Shown: piece after piece, positions 343 to 57,205 of the stretch
Numbering within the stretch: the first letter of the stretch is position 1
How the letters are laid out: the number at the start of each line of letters is the position of its first letter
From: Vulcanimicrobiota bacterium
GTDB taxonomy: Bacteria; Vulcanimicrobiota; Xenobia; Xenobiales; JADMJV01
Assembly (NCBI GenBank): GCA_050250895.1
Contig: JBFWNU010000003.1
Location: 797,137 to 861,136 of the forward strand
Direction of reading: 5' to 3'
DNA length: 64,000 nucleotides
Made by a program: the position numbers and the translations under genes
Notes under the pieces: generated by a model
The model's input: only the letters and a program-made list of their open reading frames with translations
Told to the model about the DNA's origin: nothing
Databases searched by the model: none

Positions 343-518
343 AGTTGGATCAGGCCCTCTACGAACGGGCCTGCAAGGTGGCCGCTACGGCCGGGTTCTC
401 GAGCGTGGAAGAGTTCGTCAATCACCTGGTCGAGCGCGAATTGGATCGGTTGGGCCTGGATGAGGAATTGGCCAGCGATCAGCTCCGCGAACGGTTGCGC
501 GGGCTCGGCTATCTATAG
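324..518 (+). CDS. Small ribbon-helix-helix (CopG-like) protein with C-terminal RLRGLGYL tail
   Basis: 64 aa; VKLDQALYERACKVAATAGFSSVEEFVNHLV has an RHH pattern; GGAGG upstream; overlaps the previous gene. Confidence 0.6.
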   Translation: MFGNRVKLDQALYERACKVAATAGFSSVEEFVNHLVERELDRLGLDEELASDQLRERLRGLGYL

Positions 519-2609
519 GTATTGCAGGCTGCGCAGCTGGCGCTCGAGTTCAGCCTTGGGCAGGTTGGCGGGCGAGGCCTGGGTGCCGGGAGGCAAGAGC
601 AACTCGAGTCGGGCTCTTAGTCCCGGCCGTTCAAAGGCGAGATTGTGCTTTTGCTCGGGGTCGCTGAGCAGGTCGTAAAGTTCTAGCGGCTGCAGCCGGT
701 TCTGGGCGCTGGCGCGAGTGCGGATGAGCACGAATTGCTCCTCGCGCACGGCGTCGAGGTCGATCTGACCGAAGGCCGGGTTGAGAGCAGCCAGATCTGG
801 ACCCAGCCGCAGCGAGGCCTGACCCACTGGCGGCAAGGCCGCGCCGGTGAAGACGCGCCCTTGCATCTGCTCGGGGACCGGATGCCCGGTCCAGGCCAAC
901 ACCGTGGGGGCCACATCGATATGGGTGAAGAGGCCATCGATTCGTTGGCCCGCCATCGCCTGACCAGGCAGCTTGACGATCGCCGGCACCCGCAAGACCT
1001 CCTGATAGAGCGACTGGCCGTGCTCGGTCGAGCCATGCTCGAGAAACTCCTCGCCGTGGTCCGAGACGAGCACGATCAGGGTGTTGTCGTAGAGGCCTTT
1101 CGCCTTGAGATAGGCTAACAACTGGCCGAAAGCCAGATCATTGGCTTCGACTTCGGCCGCATACAGCGCTCGGGCTTGCTCCAGGCGAGTCGGTACGGTG
1201 GGATCGCGGTAGGAAGCGTCCCGGGCCAGGGCATGGAGTTGCTCGGAGTTGATGGCGGTCTGGCCCTCGGGAGCGTAGGGGCTGTGGGGTTCGAGGGTGT
1301 GCAGATAGAGAAAGAACTTGCCGGGCTTTTCCAGCCACTCGAAGACGGCCTCGTGCAGTTCTCGGGCCGAAGCGCCACTGCGCAGGTCAAACTGCGCAAA
1401 GCCCTGACCAAAGCCCGCCGCGGTCGAGATGAAGTCGTTGGCAACCACGGCCCGGGTGCGGTAGCCGTCCGCCTGAAACGGCTCGGGCAAGCGAGTGACC
1501 CCGGACCGCAGGGTATCGCCATAGTCCTGACAGCCGTGTTCGCGGGCCGGCAGCCCGGTCAGGATCGAAGCCACCGCCGGCTTGGTCCAGCCGGCCGCCG
1601 CCTGAGCCTGGTAAAAGAGCACCCCGTCTTTGGCCAGGGCGTCAAAGTTGGGTGTGTGGGCTTTAGAGTTGTAGCACCCCAGGGCGTCGGCCCGCAGGGT
1701 GTCGACCACATAGATGAGCACGTTGGACTCGGTTTGGGCCGGGGGCAGCACGACCGGCGGGGCCGGGGGGGGAGGGGCCTGGAAGCGCACCAGTCGGCCT
1801 CGAAAGCGAAGACCCAACTGCCCCGAGATGGGCGCTTCGGTCACGGCCGTGAGGCGCAAAGCGCCCGGCGTCAGCGTCTGGCGGTGGGGCCCGGGCCCCT
1901 CCAGGGCGGCCTCGGCCGCCCCGCTCAGGCGCAGCTGCCACCCTTCCAGCGGCGGCGCCCCTTCCTCCAGCCAGGGTCTGAGCTGCTCGAGTTCAAGACG
2001 CATCCCCCCTTCGGCCGGTATTTCCAGGCACTGGCCGAAGGGCAGCAGCACCTCGTCCTTCTCCCTGGCCAGGCTGGCAGGCGAGTTTCCCGCCACCGTC
2101 ACCGACAGTCCTCTCCAGCGCGTGCCTGGAGCAATTTTCAGGACCAACAGGTTCTCTCCCGGGCGCGTCTGCCCAGGCTCGGCAGTGGCCGTGAAGCGGG
2201 CCGGGCCCGCTCGCAGGTCGACGCCTCCTAAGGACTTTCCGTTGAGTTCGACGGTGCCCGTGCGAGGCTGGTCGCAGTCACCTTCGAGCAAGATGTTGAC
2301 TCGGGTCGGCTCGAGCAAGTAGAACCGCAGTTCGGCCGCGTCCGAGGTGGTGGACAGCCAGCGATGGCGGTCTGAATCTTCCCACCCGGCCCCAACGAAC
2401 ATCTGGGTCTCGCGGTCTCCGACCGGAGTGGTCGGACCAAACAACGGACCGGTGCCGGCCCTGTCCACCAGGGAGGCAAGATCCACCACGGTGCGGGGGC
2501 GAAGCCACCACCAACCCGCCAGGGTGAGCAGGCAAACGACCACCAAAAAGCCGATCCGACGGACCACAACGGACGATTCTGCAGGGTCGGGGTTGCCGCC
2601 TTTTCGCAT
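513..2609 (-). CDS. Membrane-anchored sulfatase-like hydrolase/transferase
   Basis: N-terminal TM helix; NVLIYVVDTLRAD, WTKPAVASILTG, PHSPY and SDHGEEF motifs; true start may be the GTG at 2567. Confidence 0.88.
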   Translation of the reverse strand: MRKGGNPDPAESSVVVRRIGFLVVVCLLTLAGWWWLRPRTVVDLASLVDRAGTGPLFGPTTPVGDRETQMFVGAGWEDSDRHRWLSTTSDAAELRFYLLEPTRVNILLEGDCDQPRTGTVELNGKSLGGVDLRAGPARFTATAEPGQTRPGENLLVLKIAPGTRWRGLSVTVAGNSPASLAREKDEVLLPFGQCLEIPAEGGMRLELEQLRPWLEEGAPPLEGWQLRLSGAAEAALEGPGPHRQTLTPGALRLTAVTEAPISGQLGLRFRGRLVRFQAPPPPAPPVVLPPAQTESNVLIYVVDTLRADALGCYNSKAHTPNFDALAKDGVLFYQAQAAAGWTKPAVASILTGLPAREHGCQDYGDTLRSGVTRLPEPFQADGYRTRAVVANDFISTAAGFGQGFAQFDLRSGASARELHEAVFEWLEKPGKFFLYLHTLEPHSPYAPEGQTAINSEQLHALARDASYRDPTVPTRLEQARALYAAEVEANDLAFGQLLAYLKAKGLYDNTLIVLVSDHGEEFLEHGSTEHGQSLYQEVLRVPAIVKLPGQAMAGQRIDGLFTHIDVAPTVLAWTGHPVPEQMQGRVFTGAALPPVGQASLRLGPDLAALNPAFGQIDLDAVREEQFVLIRTRASAQNRLQPLELYDLLSDPEQKHNLAFERPGLRARLELLLPPGTQASPANLPKAELERQLRSLQYL

Positions 2610-2647
2610 GGGGGACGGGCCTGCTTCGATGGCAAAGATCCAGCAGC

Positions 2648-3817
2648 TTGAGCGACCACTCCAAAAGCAGCGGTTTCTACTGTCCGGCCTTCGACGGATT
2701 GCGCTGTCTGCTGCTGCTTTCGATCCTCGAATTCCACTATGGCCTGGGGCGGGTGGCCCTGGAGAAAATCTGGTGGATGTCGTTTGCTTTGCCGTGCTTT
2801 TTCGTGCTCAGCGGCTATCTCATCAGCCACATCCTCTACGACTATCGCGAGCGGATGTCGCGGGGCCAGACCCTCAAGGCTTTCTACGTGCGACGCGCCC
2901 TGCGGATCCTGCCGGCCTTCTACGCCGTCTTGTTGGTGGCTCATCTGGTGGGCGGGGTTCCCTATCTGGGTTGGCAGTTGGCTTATGTCTTCAACTTCAA
3001 GCTGTTTGCCCTGAGCGACCCGTTCAACCGTCAGGCTTTCTACGAGTTCATGGGGCATGTCGACTTCAACGGGGCCCACCTGTGGTCGATGGCCGTCGAG
3101 GAGCAGTTTTATGTGCTTTATCCGCTGTTCGTCTTGCTCTTGCCCCGGCGCAGTCAGGGCTGGTTGTTGGCGCTCGGCATCGCCGTCTCGGCGGCCTTGC
3201 GACTCTATCTCCTCGACCAGCATCCCCACACCTGCTACGGTGTGCTCACGCCCGTAGCCGGTGAATTCATCCTGTGGGGTTGCCTGGTGGCCTGGCTCGA
3301 ATCGCGAGATTTGCTCAAAGGGTGGAACGGAACAACCTGCTTCTACGCCGGCCTCGCTTTTTTCGCTCTGCTGGTGGTGACTCAGGGCGATGTCGAGAAC
3401 TTTCTGTTCGCCCAGTGGAAGCCCCCCGCCAATATGACCTTCTTCGGGTTGGCTCTGGCCCTGGTGGTCTTCGGTCTGCGCCACAGTCCCGACCAATGGT
3501 ACTCTCGGCTGCTGATGCAGCGGCCCCTGCGAGCGGTGGGCAAGATCGCTTATGGCGCTTATCTCTTGCATCCCTTCCTCAACCCGATGGTGGACGCGGT
3601 GCTGGTCCTGCTTCCGTGGCTGGCCATGATTCCCGGCATGCCACGGGCTCTACTGGGCCCGGTCTTCGCCATCGGGGCGGCCGCCCTGATGTGGGTGAGC
3701 TTCGAGGGGCCTCTCAACCGTCTGCGCGACCGGGTGAGCCCGCTGCCTCAGAACAGAGCCAGCGAGGCCGAGGCGAACTCTGGGAACAGGTCGGGCGAGC
3801 CGACGCTGCCGCAGTAG
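2648..3817 (+). CDS. Acyltransferase family 3 (OafA/YrhL-like O-acyltransferase)
   Basis: DGLR, FFVLSGYLI, FYVRRALRILP, HLWSMAVEEQFY and AYGAYLLH motifs; about 10 TM helices. Confidence 0.92.
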   Translation: MSDHSKSSGFYCPAFDGLRCLLLLSILEFHYGLGRVALEKIWWMSFALPCFFVLSGYLISHILYDYRERMSRGQTLKAFYVRRALRILPAFYAVLLVAHLVGGVPYLGWQLAYVFNFKLFALSDPFNRQAFYEFMGHVDFNGAHLWSMAVEEQFYVLYPLFVLLLPRRSQGWLLALGIAVSAALRLYLLDQHPHTCYGVLTPVAGEFILWGCLVAWLESRDLLKGWNGTTCFYAGLAFFALLVVTQGDVENFLFAQWKPPANMTFFGLALALVVFGLRHSPDQWYSRLLMQRPLRAVGKIAYGAYLLHPFLNPMVDAVLVLLPWLAMIPGMPRALLGPVFAIGAAALMWVSFEGPLNRLRDRVSPLPQNRASEAEANSGNRSGEPTLPQ

Positions 3818-4920
3818 TGGCTCAAGAGTTCGCGATAGTCGGTGGTCACCGGCAGGTCCATTCCGTCGACCAGTGCTTCGGCCGCTAGCCCCGGCCAGCG
3901 TCCATGGACCCGTCCGCCTCGCAGCTTGGCCCCCATCACCAGGCTGCACGAGGCCAAGCCGTGGTCGGTGCCGAGACTGCCGTTCTCGGCCAGGCGCCGG
4001 CCAAATTCGGTGACGGTCATGACCGTCACCCGCGCTTGCAGCGGGCCCAGGTCCCGCCAGAAGGCATCCAGGCTACCGGCCAGGTCGTAGAGCAACCGAT
4101 TGAGCCCGATCAGATGACCAGGCCACTCGGCCAGAATCTGGCGTGAGTGGCTATCGAATCCCCCGAACTCGCAGTGGACGGCTCCCAACTCGACACCCTG
4201 CTTGAGTAAGAAGGCTACCACCTTGAGCTGCTCGGCCAGTTCGTTGTCGGGATAGTCCCGGGCGGGCCGATAGGAGCGCGGATTCAGTCCGGCCAGAATC
4301 TCTCGCAGCCGAGCCTGCTGGCGCGACAGACGGGCCACCGGATCGCTACCCTCCAGGGCCGGCGCCGTCCAGGGCTCAAGATCGTCTAGCTTGCGGGCCG
4401 AGAGCACCGGCCCCGGCCCCTGCAACAGGGTGGGCACGTGGGCCGCCGTCGACAGGGCCCACTGATGCTCTTGCAGATGGCGGTTGAGCCATCCCGGCGG
4501 CTGCCTTTCACCCCCGAGTTCGAGATAATCCTGGGCGATAAAGTGCGAACGCGACCTGTCGCTCGTGCCCACCGCGCACACCGGCGCCAGGGTTCCCTCG
4601 CGATAGTGGGGCAGCAGCGCCCGCAGGGCCGGATTGAAGGCAAACTGCTCATCCAGACGCAGAGGCTTGAACTCGCCGTCGGGCCGGGGCAGGGCCAGCC
4701 GCGGACGCAGCCGGTAATACTCGTTCTCTTGATACGGCACCAGCGCGTGCATGCCGTCCAGGCCCCCCCGTAAAAAGACCACCACCAACACCTCGCCCTG
4801 GGATTGATGGGCGGCTACCGAAGTCGGCGCCGAGCGGGGGTCGGCGCTGGCCCAGAAGCCTCCGCTCGAGAGGCCAAACAGGCTCAGGGCACCGATCTTG
4901 AGCACCTCGCGGCGACGCAT
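3748..4920 (-). CDS. DUF1501 domain protein with Tat-type signal
   Basis: Start MRRREVLK at 4920 is coupled (TGATG) to the upstream gene; LVVVFLRGGLDG, RSHF, GFDSH, TEFGR and GTDHG motifs. Confidence 0.9.
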   Translation of the reverse strand: MRRREVLKIGALSLFGLSSGGFWASADPRSAPTSVAAHQSQGEVLVVVFLRGGLDGMHALVPYQENEYYRLRPRLALPRPDGEFKPLRLDEQFAFNPALRALLPHYREGTLAPVCAVGTSDRSRSHFIAQDYLELGGERQPPGWLNRHLQEHQWALSTAAHVPTLLQGPGPVLSARKLDDLEPWTAPALEGSDPVARLSRQQARLREILAGLNPRSYRPARDYPDNELAEQLKVVAFLLKQGVELGAVHCEFGGFDSHSRQILAEWPGHLIGLNRLLYDLAGSLDAFWRDLGPLQARVTVMTVTEFGRRLAENGSLGTDHGLASCSLVMGAKLRGGRVHGRWPGLAAEALVDGMDLPVTTDYRELLSHYCGSVGSPDLFPEFASASLALF

Positions 4921-6278
4921 CAAGGCGCCTGAAAGTCCGGGCTGCTCAAGGCCAGGTCCAGCAACCGCCCGGGCTTGCCTCGGGCCGCCTCGAGGGCGGC
5001 CATCGTGTCGGCGGTTGCCTGACCCAACAGGTAGCGTTGCAAAGCTTGTTCGGGAGTGGCCGCCGGCGTCGCGAGGCTGGCAATGACCTGTCGGCGAGCC
5101 TTGAGCCCGACCGTCGACAACCAGGTCGAGGCGCGGTCGGGCCACCCCCCGGGATTGGGGCAATAGTAGGGCGAACCCATCTCTTCAATGGCAGCCACGG
5201 CCGCCTCGGGCACCGGCTCGGTGCCGCTGGCCGCCAGGGCCGAGCAGACGAACTGGGTCGGCGTGGCCAGCTTGGCGCCGCCCTCGCGAAATTCGGGCGA
5301 GTCGAGGATGACGCCCATCACCTCGGCGATCTCGCCCCCGCTGGCTAGATAGGTTTGGGCCGCCCGTTCGACCAGGGCCGGCGGCGGGGTGTCGCTCACG
5401 AACCGGGTGACCAGTTTTTGACTGAGGAAGTGGGCTGTGGCCGGGTGGACCGCCAACATGGCGAGGGCCGCCTGTCCATCCTCCAGCGACTGGCCCAGAA
5501 TGACCTGTGGCCCGGGGGCGTGATAGTCGGGATAGTACCGAAACTGCAGATAGTCGGGTTGACCGGGGTCGTTCTGGTAGGACCAGCCCGAGAAGAGGCG
5601 GGCACAGGCGACCACTTCAGCCTGGCTGTAGACGGGCCCGCAGGTGTAGAGTTCGAGCAGTTCGCGACCGAAGTTCTCGTTGACCGCCTGCCCGGGCGAA
5701 ACCGTGTTGTCGAGGTTCTCGAGCACGGCCGGATTGGTCACCGCCACGCGTAACAGGTCGCCGAACTTGCCCAGGGCGTGGCGGCGCAGGTCGTCTTCAA
5801 GCCGGCCGAAGTTGCAGGCCACCACTTCGTTTTTGCGCGGGTCGGCGTTGAAGTGGTTGAACCAGAACTCGGTCATCACCTCGCGCAACTGCCATTTGCT
5901 GGTCAGCCCGCGCACTAGCCGCGCGCGTTGGCGCTCGCGCACCAGCACCTGGGTGGCCTGGGGGTGGTCCACCAGGGCTCGGTAGATCTCGGCCGGGGGA
6001 AGCTCGAGATAAGGCAGGCTCTTGAGTTGGACTTGCACCGGCGGTTCGGGCCGCCGGTCGGGATGCAACTGTTCGGCCAGATAGGCATCGAGGCCCTGGT
6101 GACGAGCCGCCTGGAGATCCGCCTCGGTGGTGGCCATGCGAGTGCGACGCAGGGCTCGAACGGTCTGGTCCTCGTCGGCCCCGGCCCCGGTCAGGCAGAC
6201 GAGTGCCAGCGCCAGACTCAGGAGCCGGCGCGTTCGACGCCGTTGACCGAATGAATACGGACGCTCTTGACGGCCCAT
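4920..6278 (-). CDS. DUF1800 domain protein
   Basis: QLREVMTEFWFNHFN, LDN, NENFGRELLELYT and HPATA motifs; canonical partner of DUF1501; start uncertain (about 6220-6278). Confidence 0.88.
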   Translation of the reverse strand: MGRQERPYSFGQRRRTRRLLSLALALVCLTGAGADEDQTVRALRRTRMATTEADLQAARHQGLDAYLAEQLHPDRRPEPPVQVQLKSLPYLELPPAEIYRALVDHPQATQVLVRERQRARLVRGLTSKWQLREVMTEFWFNHFNADPRKNEVVACNFGRLEDDLRRHALGKFGDLLRVAVTNPAVLENLDNTVSPGQAVNENFGRELLELYTCGPVYSQAEVVACARLFSGWSYQNDPGQPDYLQFRYYPDYHAPGPQVILGQSLEDGQAALAMLAVHPATAHFLSQKLVTRFVSDTPPPALVERAAQTYLASGGEIAEVMGVILDSPEFREGGAKLATPTQFVCSALAASGTEPVPEAAVAAIEEMGSPYYCPNPGGWPDRASTWLSTVGLKARRQVIASLATPAATPEQALQRYLLGQATADTMAALEAARGKPGRLLDLALSSPDFQAP

Positions 6279-6682
6279 TTGTCCCCATTGCCGGCCATGT
6301 CGAAATCGAGCACCACCGGCACGTTGGTGGTGTCTTCGCCCAGGGTACCTTCGAAGGGGACCAGGGCGTGATAGCGGCTGGCGTCGACCTTGTTCAACAC
6401 CGGCGAGGCCGTCATCTTGAGATGCCACTCGCGGTCTTCAGACTCGGGGTCGGCGATGGGAAAGAGCCCCTCCACCGAGCGAAACTGAACGTAATACGAC
6501 AAAGACGTCAGGATCTTTTCCTGTTCGGGCGGAGCCTTTGGCTGGGCCGGCGGAGGAGTGTAGGTGCGCTTGGGAGTGCTCTTGAAGGCGGGTGCGCTGC
6601 TACCGCCACCCCCGCCGCCCCAGGCCAGCACCAGCTGGGGAAGGAGCAGGAGGGTAAACACCAGGGCCAGACTTTTCCTCAT
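6218..6682 (-). CDS. Exported hypothetical protein
   Basis: Sec signal MRKSLALVFTLLLLPQLVLA, then a Gly/Pro linker and a globular domain. Confidence 0.7.
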   Translation of the reverse strand: MRKSLALVFTLLLLPQLVLAWGGGGGGSSAPAFKSTPKRTYTPPPAQPKAPPEQEKILTSLSYYVQFRSVEGLFPIADPESEDREWHLKMTASPVLNKVDASRYHALVPFEGTLGEDTTNVPVVLDFDMAGNGDKWAVKSVRIHSVNGVERAGS

Positions 6683-26135: not shown

Positions 26136-26948
26136 GTGGACGCCCTGGCCAGATGCATCGAGCAAGCCTGCACCGAACCGCTTGAGCTCATCGTGCTCTA
26201 TGGCTCGACGGCTCGTGGACAGGCCACCGCCGAGAGTGACCTCGACCTGGCTTTGCTACCACGCAATCCGCTCGGAGGTGTTCGTGACCTTGACCGTCTC
26301 ACCAGCCGAGTTTGTCGCGAGATGGGCAGGGGAGACCTGGACCTTGCCTGGCTCCCGAACGCCTCGTGGTTGCTCTGGCAAGAGATTGCCCGCGATGGAC
26401 AAATCCTCTTTCAAAGCCGTCCCGAGGCGCCGGCTCGGTTCCGGGCCGAAGCGGCTCTGCGGGTGGCCGAGGCCTTCCCCTGGCGCTATCGCGACCGCCG
26501 ATTCGTTTCCAGATTTTTGCAGGGAGAGACCTTCGTGAACGATAGCCTGGTGTGGCGCAAACTGGCGATGATGGCGCAGTATCTCGGCGAACTCCAGCCG
26601 GTTCTCGCCCTGGGACAAGAACGATTCCTTAGCGACCCGATGGTTCATCACGCGGCCGAACGCCTGGTGGAGCTTCTGGTCGAAGCCAGCGCCTCGATCA
26701 ACAACGAGGTGGCTCAAGCAGTTGCCGGTATCCCGCCGTCTGACGATTACAGTTCTTTCTTTTCGATGGCCAATTCTGGGTGGGTCGAGCGCGCCGTGCT
26801 CGAGCGACTGGCGGATTGGGCACGCATCCGCGATGCGCTGGTCCATCGCTACGAGGACGTGGCTCTGCCTGAGTTGTGGGAACGTCTTACCGCCTCGACT
26901 CCCGATTGGAAGACCTACCTGGCTCAAGTGCAGCAACGTCTCGACTAG
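26136..26948 (+). CDS. Fused MNT (MntA-like nucleotidyltransferase) - HEPN (HepT/DUF86-like RNase) toxin-antitoxin protein
   Basis: LYGSTARGQATAESDLDLAL (GS-x10-DxD) and RDALVHRY (R-x4-H-x-Y) in one uninterrupted frame. Confidence 0.88.
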   Translation: MDALARCIEQACTEPLELIVLYGSTARGQATAESDLDLALLPRNPLGGVRDLDRLTSRVCREMGRGDLDLAWLPNASWLLWQEIARDGQILFQSRPEAPARFRAEAALRVAEAFPWRYRDRRFVSRFLQGETFVNDSLVWRKLAMMAQYLGELQPVLALGQERFLSDPMVHHAAERLVELLVEASASINNEVAQAVAGIPPSDDYSSFFSMANSGWVERAVLERLADWARIRDALVHRYEDVALPELWERLTASTPDWKTYLAQVQQRLD

Positions 26949-48705: not shown

Positions 48706-48869
48706 ACTTCCAGCATAGGAGGCTGGCTTTGACGCGGTCTGTCCGTTTCGTTAAAGGGGCATTGCCGCGATGTTGCGGCGATATTAACGAGCCTTTCGCC
48801 CCGGCCGCGGAGGCCGCAGGATGGTCGACCGGGCAAGGAGAACGTTTTCTCTCTGAGGAGGGGGCAGAC

Positions 48870-49736
48870 ATGAGAGCGATTCGACTAACCCTATTTGTGG
48901 TGGCTTTGATACTGACAGGTTGCAGCCAGCCGTCAGGTTCCAACGGAGCCTCGGCGACTCCCGACGGTACGGCCACACCGAACGCTTCGGCCTCGCCCGT
49001 CGTCGCCTCGCCGCTTCCACTAACGGAGGAGTTTAAGCCGATTTTTGAAGCGATGGCCAGGGATCGAACCGCCTCCGACCCCGACCCTTTCGCCCCGGCC
49101 GTCGAGGCCGTGAAATCCCATCCAGAGGTGGCGCTGATGGTCGACGAGGATGGCAACACCCTCCTCAACAAGACTCTCCAGACCAGCGTCTCCGCGCGCC
49201 ACATCGAGCCCCAAAAAGAAGTCGTTGGGGTTTTGCTCGACAATGGTGCCGATCCTAACCACCCGAACTATCAACAAATGCCTCCGCTCGCCCAGCGTTC
49301 ACTCTCGCCCGGGTTGGTCACCCTTTTGCTCGAGCACGGTGCTGATCCCAACGGCCGTGCAGAATCAGGCTTGACCGCTCTAATGCAAGCCTGGGACGCC
49401 GACAGCGCCAGGGTTCTTCTCGAGCACGGGGCCGATGTGAAACTCGCCGACCGCTTTGGACGAACAGCCCTTCACCACGCCGCAGGCAACCGGAGCGAGG
49501 CCGGACCGGCCATCGTGCAGGCCCTGCTCGACGCAGGGGCCGACGCGTCTCAGACCGACGAGGGCGGGAATACTCCGCTTCATGTGGCTGCTTCTGCGGG
49601 TGAAACCGAAAGCGCGAAAATCCTGATCAGCAAAGGGGCGAAGAACGTTCCGAACAAGGAAGGCAAGACACCTCTGCAGGTAGCCAAGGAGAGTCACAAT
49701 GAAGACGTTGCCGCTTTGTTGAAGGACTTGAAGTAG
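48870..49736 (+). CDS. Ankyrin repeat lipoprotein
   Basis: Lipobox LTGC; repeated GxTxLH/LLEHGADPN ankyrin motifs; GAGGAGG RBS. Confidence 0.92.
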   Translation: MRAIRLTLFVVALILTGCSQPSGSNGASATPDGTATPNASASPVVASPLPLTEEFKPIFEAMARDRTASDPDPFAPAVEAVKSHPEVALMVDEDGNTLLNKTLQTSVSARHIEPQKEVVGVLLDNGADPNHPNYQQMPPLAQRSLSPGLVTLLLEHGADPNGRAESGLTALMQAWDADSARVLLEHGADVKLADRFGRTALHHAAGNRSEAGPAIVQALLDAGADASQTDEGGNTPLHVAASAGETESAKILISKGAKNVPNKEGKTPLQVAKESHNEDVAALLKDLK

Positions 49737-49746
49737 TGTTTGGCAG

Positions 49747-50292
49747 CTATTGGCTGGCCCGAACCGGTAGCACGATTTGACGCCGGCCGCTGATGGGCTC
49801 TTCCAAAAGCTCGCTGGCGGGAAGCACCTTCGAGGGGTCGAGCACCCGCAAAACCGCGATCTCGTCGCAGCAGTCTTGCTTGGGGCAGGCCTGGCAATCG
49901 AGCCACACCTTCTGGGGAAAGATGTTCTTTGAAACCACCTCGAATCCGAGCTTCTCGAAGAATCCGACCTGATAAGTGAGGGCGAAGACGCGGCCCAATT
50001 CCAACTCCCGGGCCTCTTCGATCAGAGCCTCGGTGATGCGGCGTCCCAGGCCGGTGCCGTGGGCCTTTTCGTGGATGGCCAGCGAGCGCACCTCGGCCAG
50101 GTCATACCACATCAGGCGCAGAGCCCCACAGCCCAGCAACTCGCCGTCATCGCTCTCGGCGATGGTGAACTCGCGAATCTGCTCGAACACTTCGACCAGT
50201 CGCTTGGGCAGCATCAGCCCCTTTTGGGCGAAGTGGTTGACGACCTGATGTATGGCTTCAGCGTCGCTCAGGCGGGCTTTGCGCAGATTCAT
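49747..50292 (-). CDS. argA: Short GNAT-type N-acetylglutamate synthase
   Basis: LAEVRSLAI, GTGLG, VFALTYQ..FF and FPQKVWLDC; coupled downstream of argD. Confidence 0.8.
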   Translation of the reverse strand: MNLRKARLSDAEAIHQVVNHFAQKGLMLPKRLVEVFEQIREFTIAESDDGELLGCGALRLMWYDLAEVRSLAIHEKAHGTGLGRRITEALIEEARELELGRVFALTYQVGFFEKLGFEVVSKNIFPQKVWLDCQACPKQDCCDEIAVLRVLDPSKVLPASELLEEPISGRRQIVLPVRASQ

Positions 50293-51458
50293 AGCACCTC
50301 CAGCAGCTCGTTGAGCAGATTGCAGACGGTCTCGAGATGGCTCTCTTCGATCACCAGCGGAGGCAGCAGCCGCAGGCTGTTGGCCCCGGCCGTGCCGATG
50401 AGAACTCCACGGGCCATGGCCTGTTCGACCAGGTCCCGAGCTTTGTGTTGCTCCTCGAGTTCGATGCCCCACATCAGGCCGCAGCCGCGTACCTGACGCA
50501 CGGCCGGCAGTTGCTCGAGAGCCATCAAGCGGCTCTCGAGATATTCACCCCGCGAGCGCACCCCGGCCAGAAACTCGGGATCGGCCACGATCTGTAGCAC
50601 CCGGTTGGCCACGCTGGTAATCATCGGACCGGCCGCGAAGGTGCTGCCGTGGTCGCCGGGCTCGAGGCAACCCGCCACCGCCTCGGTCATCAGCACGACC
50701 CCGATGGGCAGCCCGGCCGCCAGCGGCTTGGCCAGGGTCATCAGGTCGGGGCTGATGCCGCTGGCTTCGTGAGCCCAGAGAGTGCCGGTGCGGCCCAGTC
50801 CGCACTGGACTTCGTCGAAGATCAGGGCCGCCCCGGCCTGATCGCACATCCGCCGTAAACCGACCAGAAACTCGGGGGTGGCGGGCACGATGCCGCCCTC
50901 GCCCTGGACCGGTTCGACAATCACGGCTGCCACCGATTCGTCTAGCACCCCATGGACGCTGTCGAGGTCGTTGAAGACGGCCCAACGCACGCCCGGCACC
51001 AGGGGCCCAAAGGGGTCGCGCCGAGCCGCTCCCGAGGTCACCGAAAGCGCGCCCATCGAACGCCCGTGGAAGCTATTCTCAAAGGTCACCAACCCGGGCC
51101 GGCGCTTCCACTTGCGGGCGAACTTCAAGGCGCCCTCACTGGCCTCGGTGCCGCTGTTGCAGAAGAACACCCGGTCGGCAAAGCTCAACTCGCACAAACG
51201 CTGGGCCAGCTCTACGTGCGGCCTGGTGTGATAGAGGTTGCTCACGTGTACCAGGGTTTGCTCGTGCATGGCCGCCACCACCTCGGGATGCAGATGCCCC
51301 ATGCTCGAGGCTCCCAGCCCGGACAGGCAGTCGAGATAGGTCTTGCCCTCGATATCCTCGAGAAACATCCCCTGGCCGGCCACCAGCACCGGTTCGAAAC
51401 GGCGATAAGTGGGAGCCAGATACTTCTGCTCGAGGGCTTTGATGTCGTCGCCGGTCAT
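50289..51458 (-). CDS. argD: Acetylornithine aminotransferase
   Basis: FFCNSGTEA, SFHGRS, EPVQGEGG, FDEVQCG and LAKPL motifs. Confidence 0.93.
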   Translation of the reverse strand: MTGDDIKALEQKYLAPTYRRFEPVLVAGQGMFLEDIEGKTYLDCLSGLGASSMGHLHPEVVAAMHEQTLVHVSNLYHTRPHVELAQRLCELSFADRVFFCNSGTEASEGALKFARKWKRRPGLVTFENSFHGRSMGALSVTSGAARRDPFGPLVPGVRWAVFNDLDSVHGVLDESVAAVIVEPVQGEGGIVPATPEFLVGLRRMCDQAGAALIFDEVQCGLGRTGTLWAHEASGISPDLMTLAKPLAAGLPIGVVLMTEAVAGCLEPGDHGSTFAAGPMITSVANRVLQIVADPEFLAGVRSRGEYLESRLMALEQLPAVRQVRGCGLMWGIELEEQHKARDLVEQAMARGVLIGTAGANSLRLLPPLVIEESHLETVCNLLNELLEVL

Positions 51459-52195
51459 AGGCTTACCTCCGTGGCGCAGGGTTGTCCCTGGCGAAATTGT
51501 TCGAGTCCGGCCAGGTTGGTGATCAGCACCCGGGCCACTCCCGCCTCGAGGGCTTGCAGGGCCGATTCGACTTTGGGGATCATCCCGGCTCCGATCACCC
51601 CACTCTCAATGAACTCGCGACAGGTCCTTGCAGTCAGCCGCTCCTGGGGCTGGCCGTCGACCAGAATTCCCCCGCTGCCGGTGAGAAACACCAGGCAGTC
51701 GGCCCCCATTCCGGCGGCCACCGCCGAGGCCACGAAGTCGGCGTTGACGTTGAGTAGCTGGCCACGCTCACCCAGACTGATGGGCGACAGACAGGGAGTA
51801 AATCCCGCCCCGGTCAAAGCCCGTAAGCCCTCGGCATCCACACCCACGGGCATCCCCACCAGCCCCAGTTCGCCCTCGACCTGGCGGGTCTTGACCAACC
51901 CCGCGTCTACTCCCGACAGACCCAGGGCTTTGACCCCCTGGCGCACCAGACCGGCCACCAGGCTGGTGCTGGCTCCACCGGTCAAGCCCAGCACGGCCAC
52001 CTCGAGGGTGGCTGCATCGGTCACCCGCTGGCCGTCAAGAAAGCGGGGCGTGATGCCCAATCGTTCGGAAAGCTTGTTGTTAGTGGGACCGCCGCCGTGC
52101 ACGATGACCACCTCGGGCCAGTTGGCCACGGCCTGACCCAGGCCCTCGAGAAAGCGCTCGTTTTCGAGTTCGCTGCCGCCGATCTTGATTACCAT
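51455..52195 (-). CDS. argB: Acetylglutamate kinase
   Basis: VIKIGG, VHGGG, GQRVTD, NVNAD and GMIPK motifs. Confidence 0.93.
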   Translation of the reverse strand: MVIKIGGSELENERFLEGLGQAVANWPEVVIVHGGGPTNNKLSERLGITPRFLDGQRVTDAATLEVAVLGLTGGASTSLVAGLVRQGVKALGLSGVDAGLVKTRQVEGELGLVGMPVGVDAEGLRALTGAGFTPCLSPISLGERGQLLNVNADFVASAVAAGMGADCLVFLTGSGGILVDGQPQERLTARTCREFIESGVIGAGMIPKVESALQALEAGVARVLITNLAGLEQFRQGQPCATEVSL

Positions 52196-53166
52196 CCGGC
52201 CAACCCCTCCCGCTCGTCAAAGCCGAAGACGGCGTTGAGGTTCTGCAGTGCCTGGCCGGCCGCTCCCTTGATGAGGTTGTCGATGGTGCTGACCAGGATC
52301 AGGTGGCTGGCGGTGGGATGAAGACTGATATGACAACGGTTCGAGCCGACCACCTGGGCCAGGTTGGCCGTCTGCCCGGCCGCCAGGACCCTGACGAAGG
52401 GCTCGCCAGCGTAGCGGTCTTGATAGAGCTGATGAGGGTCGAAATCGCCGCTCCACGGAACGTAGAGCACGCTCAGGATGCCCCGGGTGACGGGCAGCAG
52501 ATGGGGCGTGAACAGCAGGTCGTGATGACCGATGTGCTCGCACATTTCGGCCCGATGGCGATGGCAATCCCCGATCTTGTAAGGAGTCAGATTGTCGTGC
52601 ACGTCGACGAAATGGGTGGTCCGGCTCAACCCCCGGCCGGCCCCGCTCACCCCGCTTTTGCTGTCGACGATGACGGTCCCCGCCAGCCTGTCCCTCAAAG
52701 GCTCGAGGGCCAGCAGCACGCTGGTGGGATAGCAGCCCGGATTGGCCACCATCCGCGCCCCTTTCAGGCTGGGCCGGGCCACTTCGGTGAGACCATAGAC
52801 GGCCTGAGCTAGCAAGTCGGGATAGCGGTGCGGCGTCTCGTAGACCCGCTCATACACATCCGGGTCGCCGAGGCGAAAGTCGGCTGAGAGGTCGATGACC
52901 ACGGCTCCGGCCTGATGGGCGCGCCAGACGGGCTCTTGCGAGGCGGCGTGGGGCAGACAGCTAAAGACGGCGTCGACCGCAAGGTCACACTGGTCGGCGG
53001 GCAGCAGCTCGAGGCCCGGCGCCCGCGGGTCGATGGCGTCGAGAGTCTTGCCCGCCTCGCTATGGGCGCCTACCCAGGCCAACTCGAGGCGCGGATGCCC
53101 GAGCACCAGCCGGACGAGTTCCAAACCGGCATATCCTGAGGCTCCCAGAATACCGACTTTGACCAT
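52189..53166 (-). CDS. argC: N-acetyl-gamma-glutamyl-phosphate reductase
   Basis: GASGYAG, IDLSADFRL, ANPGCYPT, SGVSGAG and DNLIKGAAGQA; AGGAG RBS before the ATG at 53166. Confidence 0.95.
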   Translation of the reverse strand: MVKVGILGASGYAGLELVRLVLGHPRLELAWVGAHSEAGKTLDAIDPRAPGLELLPADQCDLAVDAVFSCLPHAASQEPVWRAHQAGAVVIDLSADFRLGDPDVYERVYETPHRYPDLLAQAVYGLTEVARPSLKGARMVANPGCYPTSVLLALEPLRDRLAGTVIVDSKSGVSGAGRGLSRTTHFVDVHDNLTPYKIGDCHRHRAEMCEHIGHHDLLFTPHLLPVTRGILSVLYVPWSGDFDPHQLYQDRYAGEPFVRVLAAGQTANLAQVVGSNRCHISLHPTASHLILVSTIDNLIKGAAGQALQNLNAVFGFDEREGLAGW

Positions 53167-53176
53167 CTTGCTCCTA

Positions 53177-53211
53177 ATCAATAAAGCCCCCCGGCTCGGT
53201 CCGGAGGGCTT
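53177..53211 (-). terminator. Intrinsic terminator in the argC leader
   Basis: Minus strand AAGCCCTCCGG-accgag-CCGGGGGGCTT, followed by TATTGATT. Confidence 0.8.
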
Positions 53212-53237
53212 CTGTGGGAGAGGGGATTCCTACGCGC

Positions 53238-53294
53238 CTACCAGACCCAATCAAGGCTCTGGCGACGGCGACGAATGACCACGGCTCTCTTCAT
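53238..53294 (-). CDS. Putative arg operon leader peptide MKRAVVIRRRRQSLDWVW
   Basis: 18 codons with tandem CGT CGC CGT CGC, between the promoter and the terminator upstream of argC. Confidence 0.8.
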   Translation of the reverse strand: MKRAVVIRRRRQSLDWVW

Positions 53295-53296
53295 AA

Positions 53297-53331
53297 TTGC
53301 TAAAATTAGCATAACGTTGATGGGGTGTCAA
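53297..53331 (-). promoter_or_regulatory. sigma70 promoter of the arg operon
   Basis: TTGACA(53331-53326)-N17-TAATTT(53308-53303) with a TG extension; overlapping palindrome TGCTAATTTTAGCA. Confidence 0.7.
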
Positions 53332-53375
53332 CGTGGGCGCGAGGGTGGCCAGGCGGGCGGGTTGAAGCCACTTTC

Positions 53376-54149
53376 ATGGACGCGGCTAGCGAATTCGAGA
53401 TGGTCTTCCAGTCGGCTTTCGCCCCCCTGGCCCTGGCCGAGATTCCCCCCCTGGCCCGGCTGGTGTCATCCGAACTCGTCGAACTCGGCCGGCGTCTACT
53501 CGAGGCTCACTTCGGCGCCCTCACTGTGCCGGCCATGCCGGTGGAACACCTGCTGCATTTCGCCGTGCGCAAGCGCTTCTTCGAGGACCAGGCCCGGGCC
53601 GGCCTGGCCGGCGTGGCCCACGTGGTCTCACTGGGAGCCGGCTGGGACCCCCTCCTTCTCGCTCTGGCCCAGGCTCATCCCGAGGTAGCGTTCACCGAGT
53701 TTGATCGCCCCGAAGTCTGCGAGCCCAAGCGGTCGGCCCTGGTGAAGGCCGGGCTGCTTCCATCCAACCTGCACCTGGTCTCGACGGTCTTGCCCGACCT
53801 GGGAGCCTGGCCGGCTGGCCCGCACCTCATGCTAGCCCAGGCCGTGCTGATGTACCTCGAGGTTGCCCAGGTGCGCCAGCTGCTCCAGCGCTTGCCTCCG
53901 GGTCGGCTAGTGCTGAGCTACGCCACCTCGGACCTTGGTGACCCGTCGCTGGCCCGGCTGCGCCGCTTCATCGGCTGGCACTGCGACGACCTGCCCGACT
54001 TCCTGGGGCCCGACTGGCAGATTCTCGAACACCCCACCCACGCCGAGCTCGAGCAACGCTATCTACGACCTGGTTTGCGCCTGTCCGGCCCCGGCCGGGT
54101 GGAGCGGATGGCCGTCGTTCACCGTCAGCGACTGCTGGCGCGAACATAG
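53376..54149 (+). CDS. Class I SAM-dependent methyltransferase (LCM/O-methyltransferase-like)
   Basis: VRKRFFE, VVSLGAGWD, EFDRPEV...K and AQAVLMYL motifs. Confidence 0.82.
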   Translation: MDAASEFEMVFQSAFAPLALAEIPPLARLVSSELVELGRRLLEAHFGALTVPAMPVEHLLHFAVRKRFFEDQARAGLAGVAHVVSLGAGWDPLLLALAQAHPEVAFTEFDRPEVCEPKRSALVKAGLLPSNLHLVSTVLPDLGAWPAGPHLMLAQAVLMYLEVAQVRQLLQRLPPGRLVLSYATSDLGDPSLARLRRFIGWHCDDLPDFLGPDWQILEHPTHAELEQRYLRPGLRLSGPGRVERMAVVHRQRLLART

Positions 54150-54679
54150 AGGCGGGTGCAGCGGAAGCCATCTGCCGTGACAGGTTGGTAGCCTCGTTCG
54201 AGGCACTGAAAACCCATGAACTCCCCCGACTTGAGACGATAGCTCGATCGGAACAGGCCCTGAACCAGTTCATGCTCCTCGAGAAACCAGGAGCTCACCT
54301 CAAAGTCGACTAGGACAAACTGGTCCTCTCCGCGAGTCACTCTGGCCCTGATGACCGGGCCGACGGCTGACCAACCCTGGAGCCAGCGCCCGTCGTAGTC
54401 GAGTTCGGGCTGGGTTGAGGTGTAGCGAGCCAGGACTTTGCATTCACCCTGGACTTCGAGGAACGCGATCACTGCGTCGAATAGTTGGGGACGATCGAAG
54501 GAGGCGGTCCAGTCGAGCCAGCCGGCTCCTTCGACGGGACCCAGAGGTGCGGGCCCGTCCCAGGTCACTCCCATCTGCTTCACTCCGTTTTCGGTGAAGC
54601 CGATGACGTAGACGTCCCACCGGGTTTCGGCCAGCGCCGCCTGGGTCGCGAGAATGAGTAGCAACAGCAGGTGTCTCAT
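54125..54679 (-). CDS. Exported beta-rich protein, tandem paralog 5 of 5
   Basis: Signal peptide; IGFTENGVKQ, YDGRWLQGW and GF..TRLYVR family motifs. Confidence 0.85.
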   Translation of the reverse strand: MRHLLLLLILATQAALAETRWDVYVIGFTENGVKQMGVTWDGPAPLGPVEGAGWLDWTASFDRPQLFDAVIAFLEVQGECKVLARYTSTQPELDYDGRWLQGWSAVGPVIRARVTRGEDQFVLVDFEVSSWFLEEHELVQGLFRSSYRLKSGEFMGFQCLERGYQPVTADGFRCTRLYVRASSR

Positions 54680-55251
54680 TCATTCTCCTTGTCGAACTCG
54701 ACGCGGATGTAGAGGATGGTGTGAGGAAAGCCCTCGCGCGGAATCGAGTTGCCTTGTTGATCGAGGCACTCGATAATGAGGCCGTCGCCCGACATCACGC
54801 GTAGGCCGGTAAGGAACCTTCCGTGAGCGGTTTCCTTCCCCTCGAAGAACGTGGAGCCCAGGTTTAGATCCACGGCGACGTAATGATCCGGGAGTTCCTC
54901 GATCCCGGCTTTCAGCCTTGGTCCGAGCGCGGTCCAGCCTTGCAGCCAACGAGCGTCATAGTTGATCGTTGTCCCTCGCCCGTCGTGCTTGCCATAGACA
55001 GAGCACTCGCCCTGCTTGCTGAGATGCTCGATGGAAGCATCGAAGAGTCGAGAAACCCGCATGACTGGTAGCACGAGGAGCCAGCCTCGACCTTCTCGCG
55101 CGGCGACCCTCGGGAAGACGCGATCGTCGGACCAGTCCAGCCTCATCTGTTTGAGACCGTTGTCGGTGAAACCGATGAGTTCGACGTGCCATCTGAACTC
55201 GGCCAGCGCGGGCTGAGCCACCAGCAGCAAAAGAAGCAGTGCACGTTTCAT
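54676..55251 (-). CDS. Exported beta-rich protein, tandem paralog 4 of 5
   Basis: Signal peptide; LIGFTDNGLKQ, WLQGWTALGP and REGFPHTILYIRVE. Confidence 0.85.
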   Translation of the reverse strand: MKRALLLLLLVAQPALAEFRWHVELIGFTDNGLKQMRLDWSDDRVFPRVAAREGRGWLLVLPVMRVSRLFDASIEHLSKQGECSVYGKHDGRGTTINYDARWLQGWTALGPRLKAGIEELPDHYVAVDLNLGSTFFEGKETAHGRFLTGLRVMSGDGLIIECLDQQGNSIPREGFPHTILYIRVEFDKENE

Positions 55252-55802
55252 TCGTCATCCTCGTCGAGGTCGACCCGGGTGTGGGGAAAGCCCTCCCGGG
55301 CCATGGGCTGGCGGGTTGCGTCGAGACACTCTATCCCCATGTAATCGCCCCTTCTGGACTCGCAGCTCGTCCGGAACCGGCCTTGGGCCCCGGAGAAACT
55401 CGACGTGAGGTCGAGCTTCACTTGAAGACGCGGAGACCCCAAGGAAATCACGCTTGCGCGCAGATGGGGCCCGACGGGAGTCCATCCCTCGAGCCAATGA
55501 CCGTCAAAGTCGAGAGTGGGGCCTGTCTGCTCGACGCTCGAGAAGACCTGGCAATCCCCCTGGCTCTCCATGAAGCTCATCGACGCCTCGTAAACGCTCG
55601 ACGAGCGACTGAACGGCCAGAGGCTCATCCAGCCTGACCCCTCAAAGGAGGGGAGAGGGGCAGGGGGGGCTGCGTATGTGGTCCAGGACATGCCTACCTG
55701 TTTGAGACCGTTGTCGGTGAAACCGATGAGTTCGGCGTGCCATTTGGGCTCGGCTAGAACGGGGTGGGTGGCCAGGATGATGAGCAGTAGCAGGCGCTTC
55801 AT
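55248..55802 (-). CDS. Exported beta-rich protein, tandem paralog 3 of 5
   Basis: Signal peptide; LIGFTDNGLKQ, WLEGWTPVGP and REGFPHTRV (last strand shortened). Confidence 0.85.
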   Translation of the reverse strand: MKRLLLLIILATHPVLAEPKWHAELIGFTDNGLKQVGMSWTTYAAPPAPLPSFEGSGWMSLWPFSRSSSVYEASMSFMESQGDCQVFSSVEQTGPTLDFDGHWLEGWTPVGPHLRASVISLGSPRLQVKLDLTSSFSGAQGRFRTSCESRRGDYMGIECLDATRQPMAREGFPHTRVDLDEDDE

Positions 55803-56359
55803 TGGGCCTCCTCGTTCTCGACTCTGATGTAGAGTCTAGTATGAGGAAAGCCCTCCCGGGCGATCGGTTGGCGGGACGCGTCGAGAAATTCTATCCCCAA
55901 GTGGGCGCCGGAATACAACGAGTACGTTCCTCGAAAGGTCCCCTGAGTCGCCTCCTTCGCCTGGAGGAAGCGAGAAGTCAGACTAAAGTTGAGCTGCGTT
56001 TGTGGGTCCGGAGGGGAGGCGCTCGCGCTCAGACTGAGACCCACCGGCGTCCATCCAGCGAGCCATTGAGCGTCAAAATCGAGCTTAGGGCCTGTTTGGT
56101 CTAGCCTGGCGAAGACCTCGCACTCACGCTGGCTCTCCAGGAAGTCGAGGCTAACCTCGAAAATGACCGGAGAGCGTGAGAATTCGTATAGCTCAAGCCA
56201 ACCCGAACCGGTAGCAGGCTCGACCACGCTCGGAGCATTGGGTGTGACGCCTAGCTGTTTGAGACCATTGTCGGTGATCCCGATCAATACGACGTGCCAC
56301 CTCGTATCGGCCAGGACAGGGTGGGTGGCCAGGATGAGTAGCAAGAGCAGGCACCTCAT
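55799..56359 (-). CDS. Exported beta-rich protein, tandem paralog 2 of 5
   Basis: Signal peptide; LIGITDNGLKQ, WLAGWTPVG and REGFPHTRLYIRVE. Confidence 0.85.
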   Translation of the reverse strand: MRCLLLLLILATHPVLADTRWHVVLIGITDNGLKQLGVTPNAPSVVEPATGSGWLELYEFSRSPVIFEVSLDFLESQRECEVFARLDQTGPKLDFDAQWLAGWTPVGLSLSASASPPDPQTQLNFSLTSRFLQAKEATQGTFRGTYSLYSGAHLGIEFLDASRQPIAREGFPHTRLYIRVENEEAQ

Positions 56360-56925
56360 TCATTCACCTCGTTCTCGACGCGAAGGTAGAGGACCGTGCG
56401 AGGAAAACGCCCGCGCGGGATTGAGTTGCGCTGCTGGTCGAGGCACTCGAAACTGATACTGTCGCCCGACTTCACACGCATGCTGGTGCGGAACCTTCCA
56501 AAGGCCAGTTCCTCGCCCTCGAGGAAGGCTGACTCCAGCTCGAAATCCACCATGACAAAGTCGTTGGGAAGGGTCGTGAGATTGGCCTGCAGCGCAGGAC
56601 CGAGGGCGGTCCAGCCTTCGAGCCAGCGACCGTAGTAACTGACGCTCGTCCCCATTCCCTCGGCTCGGTCGTAGACCTCACAGTCGCCCCGCCCTGTCAG
56701 GAACTTGAGACTCGCCTCGAAGATTCGAGGACTCCGAGCAAACTCGCAGAGGTCCAGCCAGCCCTTACCCTCCACCGGAGACAGAGGGTCAGCGCCACCC
56801 CAGCTGACTCCGATTTGCTTGCGGCCCGCTTCCGTGAAACCGACGAGTTCGGCCTGCCACCGGGGCTGGGCCAGAGCGGGCAGGCTGGTCAACAGAAGCA
56901 GCACGGGGAGGAGCCTCAGACGCAT
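56356..56925 (-). CDS. Exported beta-rich protein, tandem paralog 1 of 5
   Basis: ATG at 56925 (MRLRLLPVLLL); LVGFTEAGRKQ, WLEGWTALGP and FPRTVLYLRVE. Confidence 0.85.
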   Translation of the reverse strand: MRLRLLPVLLLLTSLPALAQPRWQAELVGFTEAGRKQIGVSWGGADPLSPVEGKGWLDLCEFARSPRIFEASLKFLTGRGDCEVYDRAEGMGTSVSYYGRWLEGWTALGPALQANLTTLPNDFVMVDFELESAFLEGEELAFGRFRTSMRVKSGDSISFECLDQQRNSIPRGRFPRTVLYLRVENEVNE

Positions 56926-56955
56926 CTCCGTAGGTTCAGCTGATTGAGGACCGGT

Positions 56956-56985
56956 CCCTCTTAGGCGGCCGACTTGGAAAGCGCC
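56956..56985. repeat. Direct repeat (28/30) of 58383-58412; remnant of the 3' end of gene 58388-59011
   Basis: CCCTCTTAGGCGGC(C/G)GACTTGGAAAG(C/G)GCC; both copies encode ALSKSAA* on the minus strand. Confidence 0.8.
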
Positions 56986-57205
56986 TTGCTTGCGGCCCGC
57001 GCGGGTCAATTTTCAAAAAATCTTCCCGCTGCGGCCAAGTTCGTCAAAAGGGGATCCCGGCAGGTGGAAGGCCCCTGAGGCGGCTTGAATGTCCTTCTCG
57101 GCCACTTTGACAGAAATTCTGAGGTTGCGCTCATTTTTACTCTAGAAAGGGCCGCAAATCATCGGCTAGAGGAGGCGCAATTGCCTATCAAATAAGGCTT
57201 TGAAG

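Follow-up and report, generated by a model that had tools for sequence, protein, structure and literature searches.

The 64,000-nucleotide (nt) stretch of the Vulcanimicrobiota bacterium contig JBFWNU010000003.1 analyzed here (the window) carries an arginine-biosynthesis operon, argC-argB-argD followed by a short argA-like gene. The intergenic leader in front of argC, which separates it from a divergent gene encoding an LCM-type methyltransferase, is in our assessment probably a ribosome-mediated (leader-peptide) transcription attenuator that senses charged arginine transfer RNA (tRNA-Arg) and controls read-through into the four genes. This proposal is based on the sequence elements present in the leader, their positions, their alternative pairings with the corresponding folding energies, and their rarity among shuffled sequences. 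A first-pass annotation of the same DNA had already suggested an attenuator in this place, and with its antiterminator corrected the element appears, at the level of sequence, to have every property of a trp-type attenuator keyed to arginine. All leader and operon coordinates refer to the minus strand of the window and are collected in Table 1.

In the order of transcription, the leader begins with a promoter-like pattern in which TTGACA and TAATTT are separated by a 17-nt spacer, at the positions where the first-pass annotation had placed a promoter. The pattern TTGACA-N14-TGnTAnnnT has a single match in the 64-kilobase (kb) window, and none of 100 shuffles contained one. Between this promoter (53331-53303) and argC (53166) lies the 18-codon open reading frame (ORF) with four Arg codons that had been described at 53294-53238 and that is indeed found there. 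On the two strands together the window has 466 ORFs of 8-40 codons that start with ATG, and this frame (nested starts at 53312 and 53294) is the sole one to contain RRRR. The leader AUG is located 9 nt downstream of the -10, a distance which fits a leaderless or near-leaderless start, and the ORF is presumably translated in this manner. A further ATG in the same frame, 18 nt upstream at 53312, would give an ORF of 24 codons (MLILAIMKRAVV...), and because it is located between the -35 and the -10 it would be transcribed solely from some other, upstream promoter. As to the putative regulatory codons themselves, 16 genes of the window encode Arg by CGC in 50% of cases, by CGG in 23%, by CGA in 11% and by CGT in 9%. 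CGU and CGC are read by one tRNA-Arg, with the anticodon ICG, and the alternating CGT/CGC run would report the charging of a single isoacceptor.

The ORF is followed by, and partly overlaps, a set of RNA segments with alternative partners. Segment 1, CCAGAGCC (53262-53255), pairs with segment 2, GGGTCTGG, in a 1:2 hairpin with one G.G mismatch and a folding energy of -13.3 kcal/mol including the flanking pair, and this hairpin overlaps the end of the ORF as the first-pass annotation had noted. Further downstream, segments 3 and 4 form a hairpin with a G+C-rich stem of 12 pairs, two of them G.U, and a 6-nt loop (-22.3 kcal/mol). Together with the U-rich tail, this hairpin is a predicted intrinsic terminator between the leader ORF and argC, and the succession of hairpin, tail and argC ribosome-binding site given previously is present in the sequence. 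The antiterminator, on the other hand, had to be replaced. The pairing between segments 2 and 3 originally put forward, GGGTCTG with CAGAAGCCC, is weak by inspection, with 4+3 pairs around a 2-nt bulge, and RNAfold prefers another and stronger one, in which GGUCUGG (53247-53241) pairs with CCGGACC (53204-53198), with further pairs between GGC (53238-53236) and GCC (53209-53207) and small inner stems. The stalled ribosome was modeled by masking segment 1 and ending the nascent transcript at the loop of the terminator, and under these conditions the antiterminator totals -21.1 to -23.0 kcal/mol, compared with -22.3 kcal/mol for the terminator, and takes up 7 of the 11 bases of the terminator left arm. 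In silico, the antiterminator is predicted to be mutually exclusive with the terminator and as stable. When the ribosome is instead placed at the stop codon it covers segment 2, and the antiterminator pairing falls to -1.8 kcal/mol. With no ribosome, an extended fold based on the 1:2 hairpin and including the Arg codons (-30.9 kcal/mol) is made before segment 3 exists, and in the full-length RNA the terminator is present. The 131-nt leader as a whole folds at -55.4 kcal/mol (z = -2.49), and 5 of 200 shuffles fold as well.

We hypothesize that transcription would start at, or a few bases from, the AUG at 53294 and that a ribosome would start on the 18-codon frame. With Arg-tRNA plentiful, this ribosome would reach the UAG at 53240-53238 and cover segment 2, the terminator (53212-53183) would form, and the polymerase would stop before argC. 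With Arg-tRNA scarce, the ribosome would stall at the CGU/CGC codons 8-11 and cover segment 1. In this stalled state, GGUCUGG of segment 2 would join CCGGACC in the left arm and loop of the terminator, and GGC would join GCC, delaying the terminator hairpin in such a way that the polymerase would read into the operon, which would then respond to arginine supply. In the case of a transcript with no ribosome, the 1:2 hairpin would form first, extending over the Arg codons, and the terminator would be left free. As in a classical attenuator, the model predicts read-through when the ribosome stalls, and termination when translation either runs to completion or does not take place.

The geometry required for such a switch was compared with shuffled sequences and with proven attenuators. 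The 82 nt preceding the terminator were shuffled 1000 times with their dinucleotide content preserved. Of these sequences, 21 had an antiterminator of equal or greater strength that used as many left-arm bases, 20 had an upstream partner sequestered by the zone that the stalled ribosome covers, and a single one combined both properties. The hisL, trpL, thrL and leuL leaders of E. coli K-12, processed with the identical script as positive controls, gave nascent antiterminators that take up from 5/8 to 9/14 of the left-arm bases, with energies of -15.6 to -29.0 kcal/mol; in trp, thr and leu, a ribosome placed at the stop codon abolished this pairing. On every measure of this one script the values of the candidate lie in the range spanned by these four proven attenuators. 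Of the stall and read-through mechanism of the first-pass annotation, the architecture is present in the sequence and the switch geometry is supported by the shuffles and the E. coli controls; the specific 2:3 pairing is not supported.

Table 1. Positions of the leader elements, the operon genes and the divergent gene in the window
Feature	Coordinates	Strand	Remarks
LCM-type methyltransferase gene, divergent	start 53325 or 53376	+	
-35 hexamer TTGACA	53326..53331	-	read in the sequence; belongs to the promoter pattern unique in the window
Extended -10 TGcTAATTT	53303..53311	-	TAATTT 53308-53303, TG 53311-53310
Leader ORF, 18 codons, MKRAVVIRRRRQSLDWVW + stop	53238..53294	-	ATG 53294, TAG 53240-53238
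Four consecutive Arg codons CGT CGC CGT CGC	53262..53273	-	putative regulatory codons; leader codons 8-11
Segment 1, 5' arm of the 1:2 hairpin	53255..53263	-	directly after the Arg run
Segment 2	53241..53248	-	abuts the stop codon; partner is segment 1 or segment 3
Segment 3, 3' strands of the antiterminator	53198..53209	-	overlaps the terminator left arm and loop
Predicted intrinsic terminator hairpin, segments 3:4	53183..53212	-	from folding
U-rich tail TATTGATT	53176..53183	-	interrupted U-tract, runs into the argC ribosome-binding site
argC Shine-Dalgarno AGGAG	53171..53175	-	4 nt before the ATG at 53166
argC	52189..53166	-	TIGR01850, 350 bits (cut-off 234)
argB, acetylglutamate kinase	51455..52195	-	TIGR00761, 197 bits (cut-off 151); overlaps the end of argC
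argD, acetylornithine aminotransferase	50289..51458	-	TIGR00707, 443.5 bits (cut-off 410); 4-nt overlap with argB
Short GNAT N-acetyltransferase (argA-like short N-acetylglutamate synthase)	49747..50292	-	NF005840, 192.7 bits (cut-off 154)

The genes downstream of the leader were identified with NCBIfam models, which bear out the argCBD-argA operon of the first-pass annotation, with argC, argB and argD followed by a short GNAT resembling N-acetylglutamate synthase. The latter scores 143.6 bits against the amino-acid N-acetyltransferase model NF005921, less than the 180 bits set as its cut-off. The end of each gene overlaps the start of the next, the ATG of the short GNAT overlapping the argD stop (ATGA), and the four are therefore considered to form one operon. 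This operon is assigned to arginine rather than lysine, since the models of the LysW pathway score under their cut-offs and those of ArgC and ArgB above theirs. Two homologues, one with 93% and one with 67% identity, confirm the start of argC; their N-termini read MVKVGILGASGYAG and MEKVGILGASGYAG, respectively.

Several observations weigh against the interpretation of the leader as an arginine attenuator. The TAATTT hexamer agrees with TATAAT at only 3 of 6 positions, and for this reason the site is missing from a consensus promoter scan; moreover, a transcription start near the leader AUG is one that we infer. No Shine-Dalgarno sequence is found before the leader ORF, which is therefore presumably read leaderless. 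In a six-frame translation of this 64% G+C DNA, RRRR is common, with 47 occurrences in the window. The U-tract of the terminator is interrupted (UUUAUUGAUU), and a loose hairpin-plus-T scan gave 36 matches in the window, mostly inside ORFs, so that it cannot show terminator use at gene ends here. In the shuffle test, the mask boundaries were picked after the sequence had been seen, and its result should be taken as an indication and not as a strict p-value. The masked fold proposed in the first-pass annotation as a check, when computed at equilibrium, leaves the terminator in place (P = 0.64-0.99) with the mask at any Arg codon. The same equilibrium fold with a ribosome mask gives a terminator probability of 0.88-0.998 in the four E. 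coli controls, and because these proven attenuators behave alike, equilibrium masked folding does not discriminate. None of 66 distant argC loci from other species, collected by scanning genome contigs with an ArgC query, has a short ORF with an Arg run and a terminator ahead of argC (ArgC 23-46% identical; 3 of the 66 with less than 300 nt of upstream DNA). The two palindromes of the promoter, described below, could also be protein operators, acting alone or together with an attenuator.

These palindromes figure in one rival explanation, which we regard as unlikely, namely that the terminator is a real attenuating one run by an RNA-binding protein, a small RNA or an unrecognized ligand-binding fold, or that a repressor bound to the palindromes controls the operon mainly at the promoter, the Arg run being fortuitous. 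Such control without a ribosome would agree with the missing Shine-Dalgarno sequence and with RRRR being a common chance product of CG-rich repeats, as illustrated by the same DNA giving RRRR also on the opposite strand. It would also agree with two perfect palindromes over the -35 and the -10/start region, each the sole copy without mismatches in the window. The inverted repeat ACGTTGA-N7-TCAACGT (53314-53334), which overlaps the -35, might bind a repressor or, in the divergent transcript, form a stem-loop at the 5' end. At the -10 lies the 14-bp palindrome TGCTAA-TT-TTAGCA (53298-53311), each strand of which reads as an extended -10 (minus, TGcTAATTT; plus, TGcTAAAAT). It may serve as an operator, or else as the core of a bidirectional promoter for both the arg leader and the divergent methyltransferase gene; as a back-to-back extended -10 pair, it would be explained with no need for a repressor. 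Control by ArgR involves tandem ARG boxes of 18 bp at the promoter, whereas this palindrome is single, with no second box seen by eye; its spacing would fit an ARG-box core, and its half-sites appear to differ. Among the scanned ORFs of the window, and speaking for the window only, no match to the Arg_repressor family was found. A repressor acting together with an attenuator has a precedent in TrpR at trp. Against a switch driven by a protein or a ligand stands the position of the Arg run exactly at segment 1 and of the stop codon exactly at segment 2, an arrangement which such a switch does not need and which recurs in 1 of 1000 shuffles. In addition, Rfam gave no match in the leader with E values up to 10 (searched over 52800-53800), no T-box among them, and nothing in the whole window at the gathering score. 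On this account a T-box or any known riboswitch or leader family was rejected. Two matches at chance level fell elsewhere, CC3513 within argC and ZMP-ZTP at 53716-53800, and no tRNA genes were found in the window. A dispersed repeat of the REP/BIME type was likewise rejected within the window, where the hairpin has no other copy at up to 3 mismatches.

A coincidence appears improbable as well. According to this explanation, the leader would hold a stable hairpin of the 5' untranslated region or a weak and leaky terminator, the frame would be untranslated, and the operon would be constitutive or regulated elsewhere. The candidate attenuator is a single instance, matched in none of the 66 distant argC loci, its U-tract is interrupted, and consensus scans give nothing significant at the leader; in a terminator scan of 3 kb, for example, 1 site was found and 1.5 were expected, which is not significant alone. 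Furthermore, the region was picked from many windows, among which some look-alikes are expected by chance. What speaks against chance is the joint occurrence of independent rare features on one strand, within 165 nt, and before the very operon whose end product fits the codon run: a promoter pattern absent from 100 shuffles, one RRRR locus among the 466 short ATG ORFs, and the switch geometry seen once in 1000 shuffles. In addition, there is no obvious neutral reason for a perfect hairpin of -22 kcal/mol, ending in a U-rich tail, to lie where it does, after a promoter and ahead of a start codon. We consider it less probable still that the promoter, ORF and terminator constitute an independent small gene, encoding a small protein or a small RNA of about 115 nt and linked to argC by position only, with argC being transcribed from its own start further downstream or by leakage. 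The unit is in fact self-contained, and RNAs derived from attenuators can act in trans, as described in the available part of the report on rnTrpL of S. meliloti (PMC10117765). Nevertheless, an 8-nt U-rich tail alone parts the terminator stem from the argC Shine-Dalgarno sequence and leaves no room for a separate argC promoter, and because the divergent gene starts at 53325 or 53376, the promoter region described here is the sole one open to argC. A role in trans would, moreover, add to attenuation and not exclude it.

Beyond the argC leaders, the combination of an Arg-run ORF, a terminator and a downstream gene was searched anywhere in the 66 loci and gave 7 loose matches, none in an argC leader. 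The strongest (locus L006, -28.4 kcal/mol) was dismissed as an ordinary terminator between convergent genes, and weak resemblances in loci L045 and L047 were judged to be chance. Closer ArgC relatives were found by protein search, with 93% (P0001), 67% (P0002) and 58-61% identity (P0003-P0005), followed by a broad set of further homologues at 50-57%, the few names among which are Chloroflexota, Armatimonadota and Eremiobacterota. In two argC loci of Vicinamibacterales, L048 (around 1760-1790) and L056 (around 2770-2800), the same A+T-rich motif, CATCGATTTT(A/C)ATTGATCGAA, occurs some 100-130 nt ahead of argC. This motif is a candidate protein operator, possibly ARG-box-like, and suggests that these Vicinamibacterales use a repressor and not a leader peptide.

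Other features of the window include the end of the operon, which lies 11 nt (49736-49747) from where an ankyrin-repeat gene on the plus strand (48729-49736), convergent with it, ends; in the loose hairpin-plus-T scan no terminator-like hairpin was found between the two. Upstream of the leader, at 54125-57009 on the minus strand, five tandem paralogous ORFs of 184-217 amino acids overlap their neighbors by 4 nt. With 40-44% identity to the first member, they have an N-terminus resembling a signal peptide (MRxLLLLLILAT.PALAE) and conserved Cys and Trp positions, and match no Pfam or NCBIfam family. A 270-amino-acid ORF at 26136-26948 on the plus strand combines a Pol-beta-type nucleotidyltransferase domain (residues 15-94) with a HepT-like RNase domain (residues 146-264), and looks like a fused MNT-HepT toxin-antitoxin module, the two being usually separate genes. 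The window also holds a sulfatase gene and a DUF1501/DUF1800 pair (513-6428 and elsewhere), a gene content typical of Planctomycetota and Verrucomicrobiota, in contrast to the Chloroflexota, Armatimonadota and Eremiobacterota labels of the nearest named ArgC homologues.

Leader-peptide attenuation is textbook knowledge for Trp, His, Leu, Thr, Ile/Val and Phe, and has since been extended to Cys and Lys. Control of arginine biosynthesis is conventionally assigned to ArgR and, in some Firmicutes, to T-boxes. Like the trpL, hisL, thrL and leuL leaders of E. coli, the element described here would combine a promoter-proximal short ORF carrying a run of end-product codons, the 1:2, 2:3 and 3:4 hairpins, a stop codon at which segment 2 is blocked by a terminating ribosome, and a G+C-rich terminator immediately ahead of the first structural gene. 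It differs from them in the amino acid putatively sensed, in the operon, argCBD-argA, in the missing Shine-Dalgarno sequence and in the interrupted U-tract; the host is a G+C-rich, sparsely sampled non-proteobacterium, and there is neither sequence similarity nor an Rfam match to these leaders. The lysZ, lysY and lysJ genes of the aminoadipate pathway to lysine are homologous to argB, argC and argD, and in Thermus thermophilus a leader-peptide attenuator reportedly lies before this lysine cluster, in work attributed to Tsubouchi and colleagues in 2005. That leader is said to carry Lys codons and to serve lysine synthesis, whereas the enzymes encoded here score as true ArgC and ArgB, above the curated cut-offs.

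A leaderless leader ORF has a precedent. The trpL ORF of S. meliloti, part of a ribosome-dependent transcription attenuator, starts at the 5' AUG of the attenuator RNA, that is, leaderless (PMC10117765, in its available part), a property presumably shared by the ORF proposed here; in contrast to the latter it carries Trp codons, precedes trpE(G) and has been experimentally tested, and the released RNA and peptide act in trans. In G+C-rich bacteria, leaderless polycysteine short ORFs of mycobacteria regulate downstream biosynthetic genes (10.1101/834739 and PMC13236596, available parts), and the ilvB1 attenuator of M. tuberculosis has an upstream ORF rich in the cognate amino acids (PMC4633059, available part). 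These cases have in common with the arg leader a short or leaderless upstream ORF rich in cognate codons, but they concern cysteine or branched-chain amino acids and not arginine, and the cysteine case acts on translation (PMC13236596); in the main text of PMC4633059 and PMC13236596 the word "arginine" occurs 0 times.

Arginine is sensed through consecutive Arg codons in orf34 upstream of speF in Salmonella, where ribosome pausing re-folds the downstream mRNA (PMC6386406, available part). In that system, as far as the same part of the source goes, two Arg codons lie in a conserved 34-codon peptide (DUF2618, with an HIRRT...HIMM core), the gene controlled is that of ornithine decarboxylase, in polyamine synthesis, and the outputs are Rho-dependent termination, RNase G decay and occlusion of the ribosome-binding site, with no intrinsic terminator switch. 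A sensor of the orf34 type was rejected for the leader studied here, in which the DUF2618 core is missing by inspection, the downstream gene is argC and a predicted intrinsic terminator is present. With regard to arginine genes, the RNA-level control described in the available part of PMC1262725 consists of T-boxes, and no RNA element is given there before arg operons of Actinobacteria. The usual control by ArgR and ARG boxes or by Arg T-boxes concerns the same pathway as the leader studied here, in which neither a T-box nor any other Rfam family is found. The supplement of PMC2965389, a paper whose main text never uses the word "arginine", does list unclassified premature-terminator candidates for argC of Ralstonia solanacearum, for argG, argB and argH in two species each, and for argJ in two Brucella, none of them marked as having a short ORF or belonging to a known class. 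In searches of the full-text literature, no leader attenuator with Arg codons was found for any arg operon of bacteria, a negative result weakened in part by word noise of the type "ARGL..." and in agreement with the first-pass annotation, in which no classical attenuator was known for such an operon. The chances seem slightly better than even that the element is the first classical trp-type attenuator with Arg codons on an arginine-biosynthesis operon, with a leaderless 18-codon ORF and in a sparsely sampled G+C-rich lineage.

If real, what is new would be the amino-acid specificity, the operon controlled and the leaderless leader ORF; the mechanism class is already known, and no principle would be overturned. 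Such an attenuator would nonetheless fill a conspicuous gap in the attenuator repertoire, and would provide a compact (about 115 nt) and protein-free sensor of tRNA-Arg charging for reporters and circuit design. In the organism itself, it would possibly stand in for ArgR or act alongside it. It would also motivate systematic screening of under-sampled phyla for arg genes preceded by Arg-run leaders, and raise the question of whether the presence of such leaders coincides with the loss of argR. In a broader sense, a lineage outside the model phyla would have reinvented the trp-type switch on a leaderless transcript.

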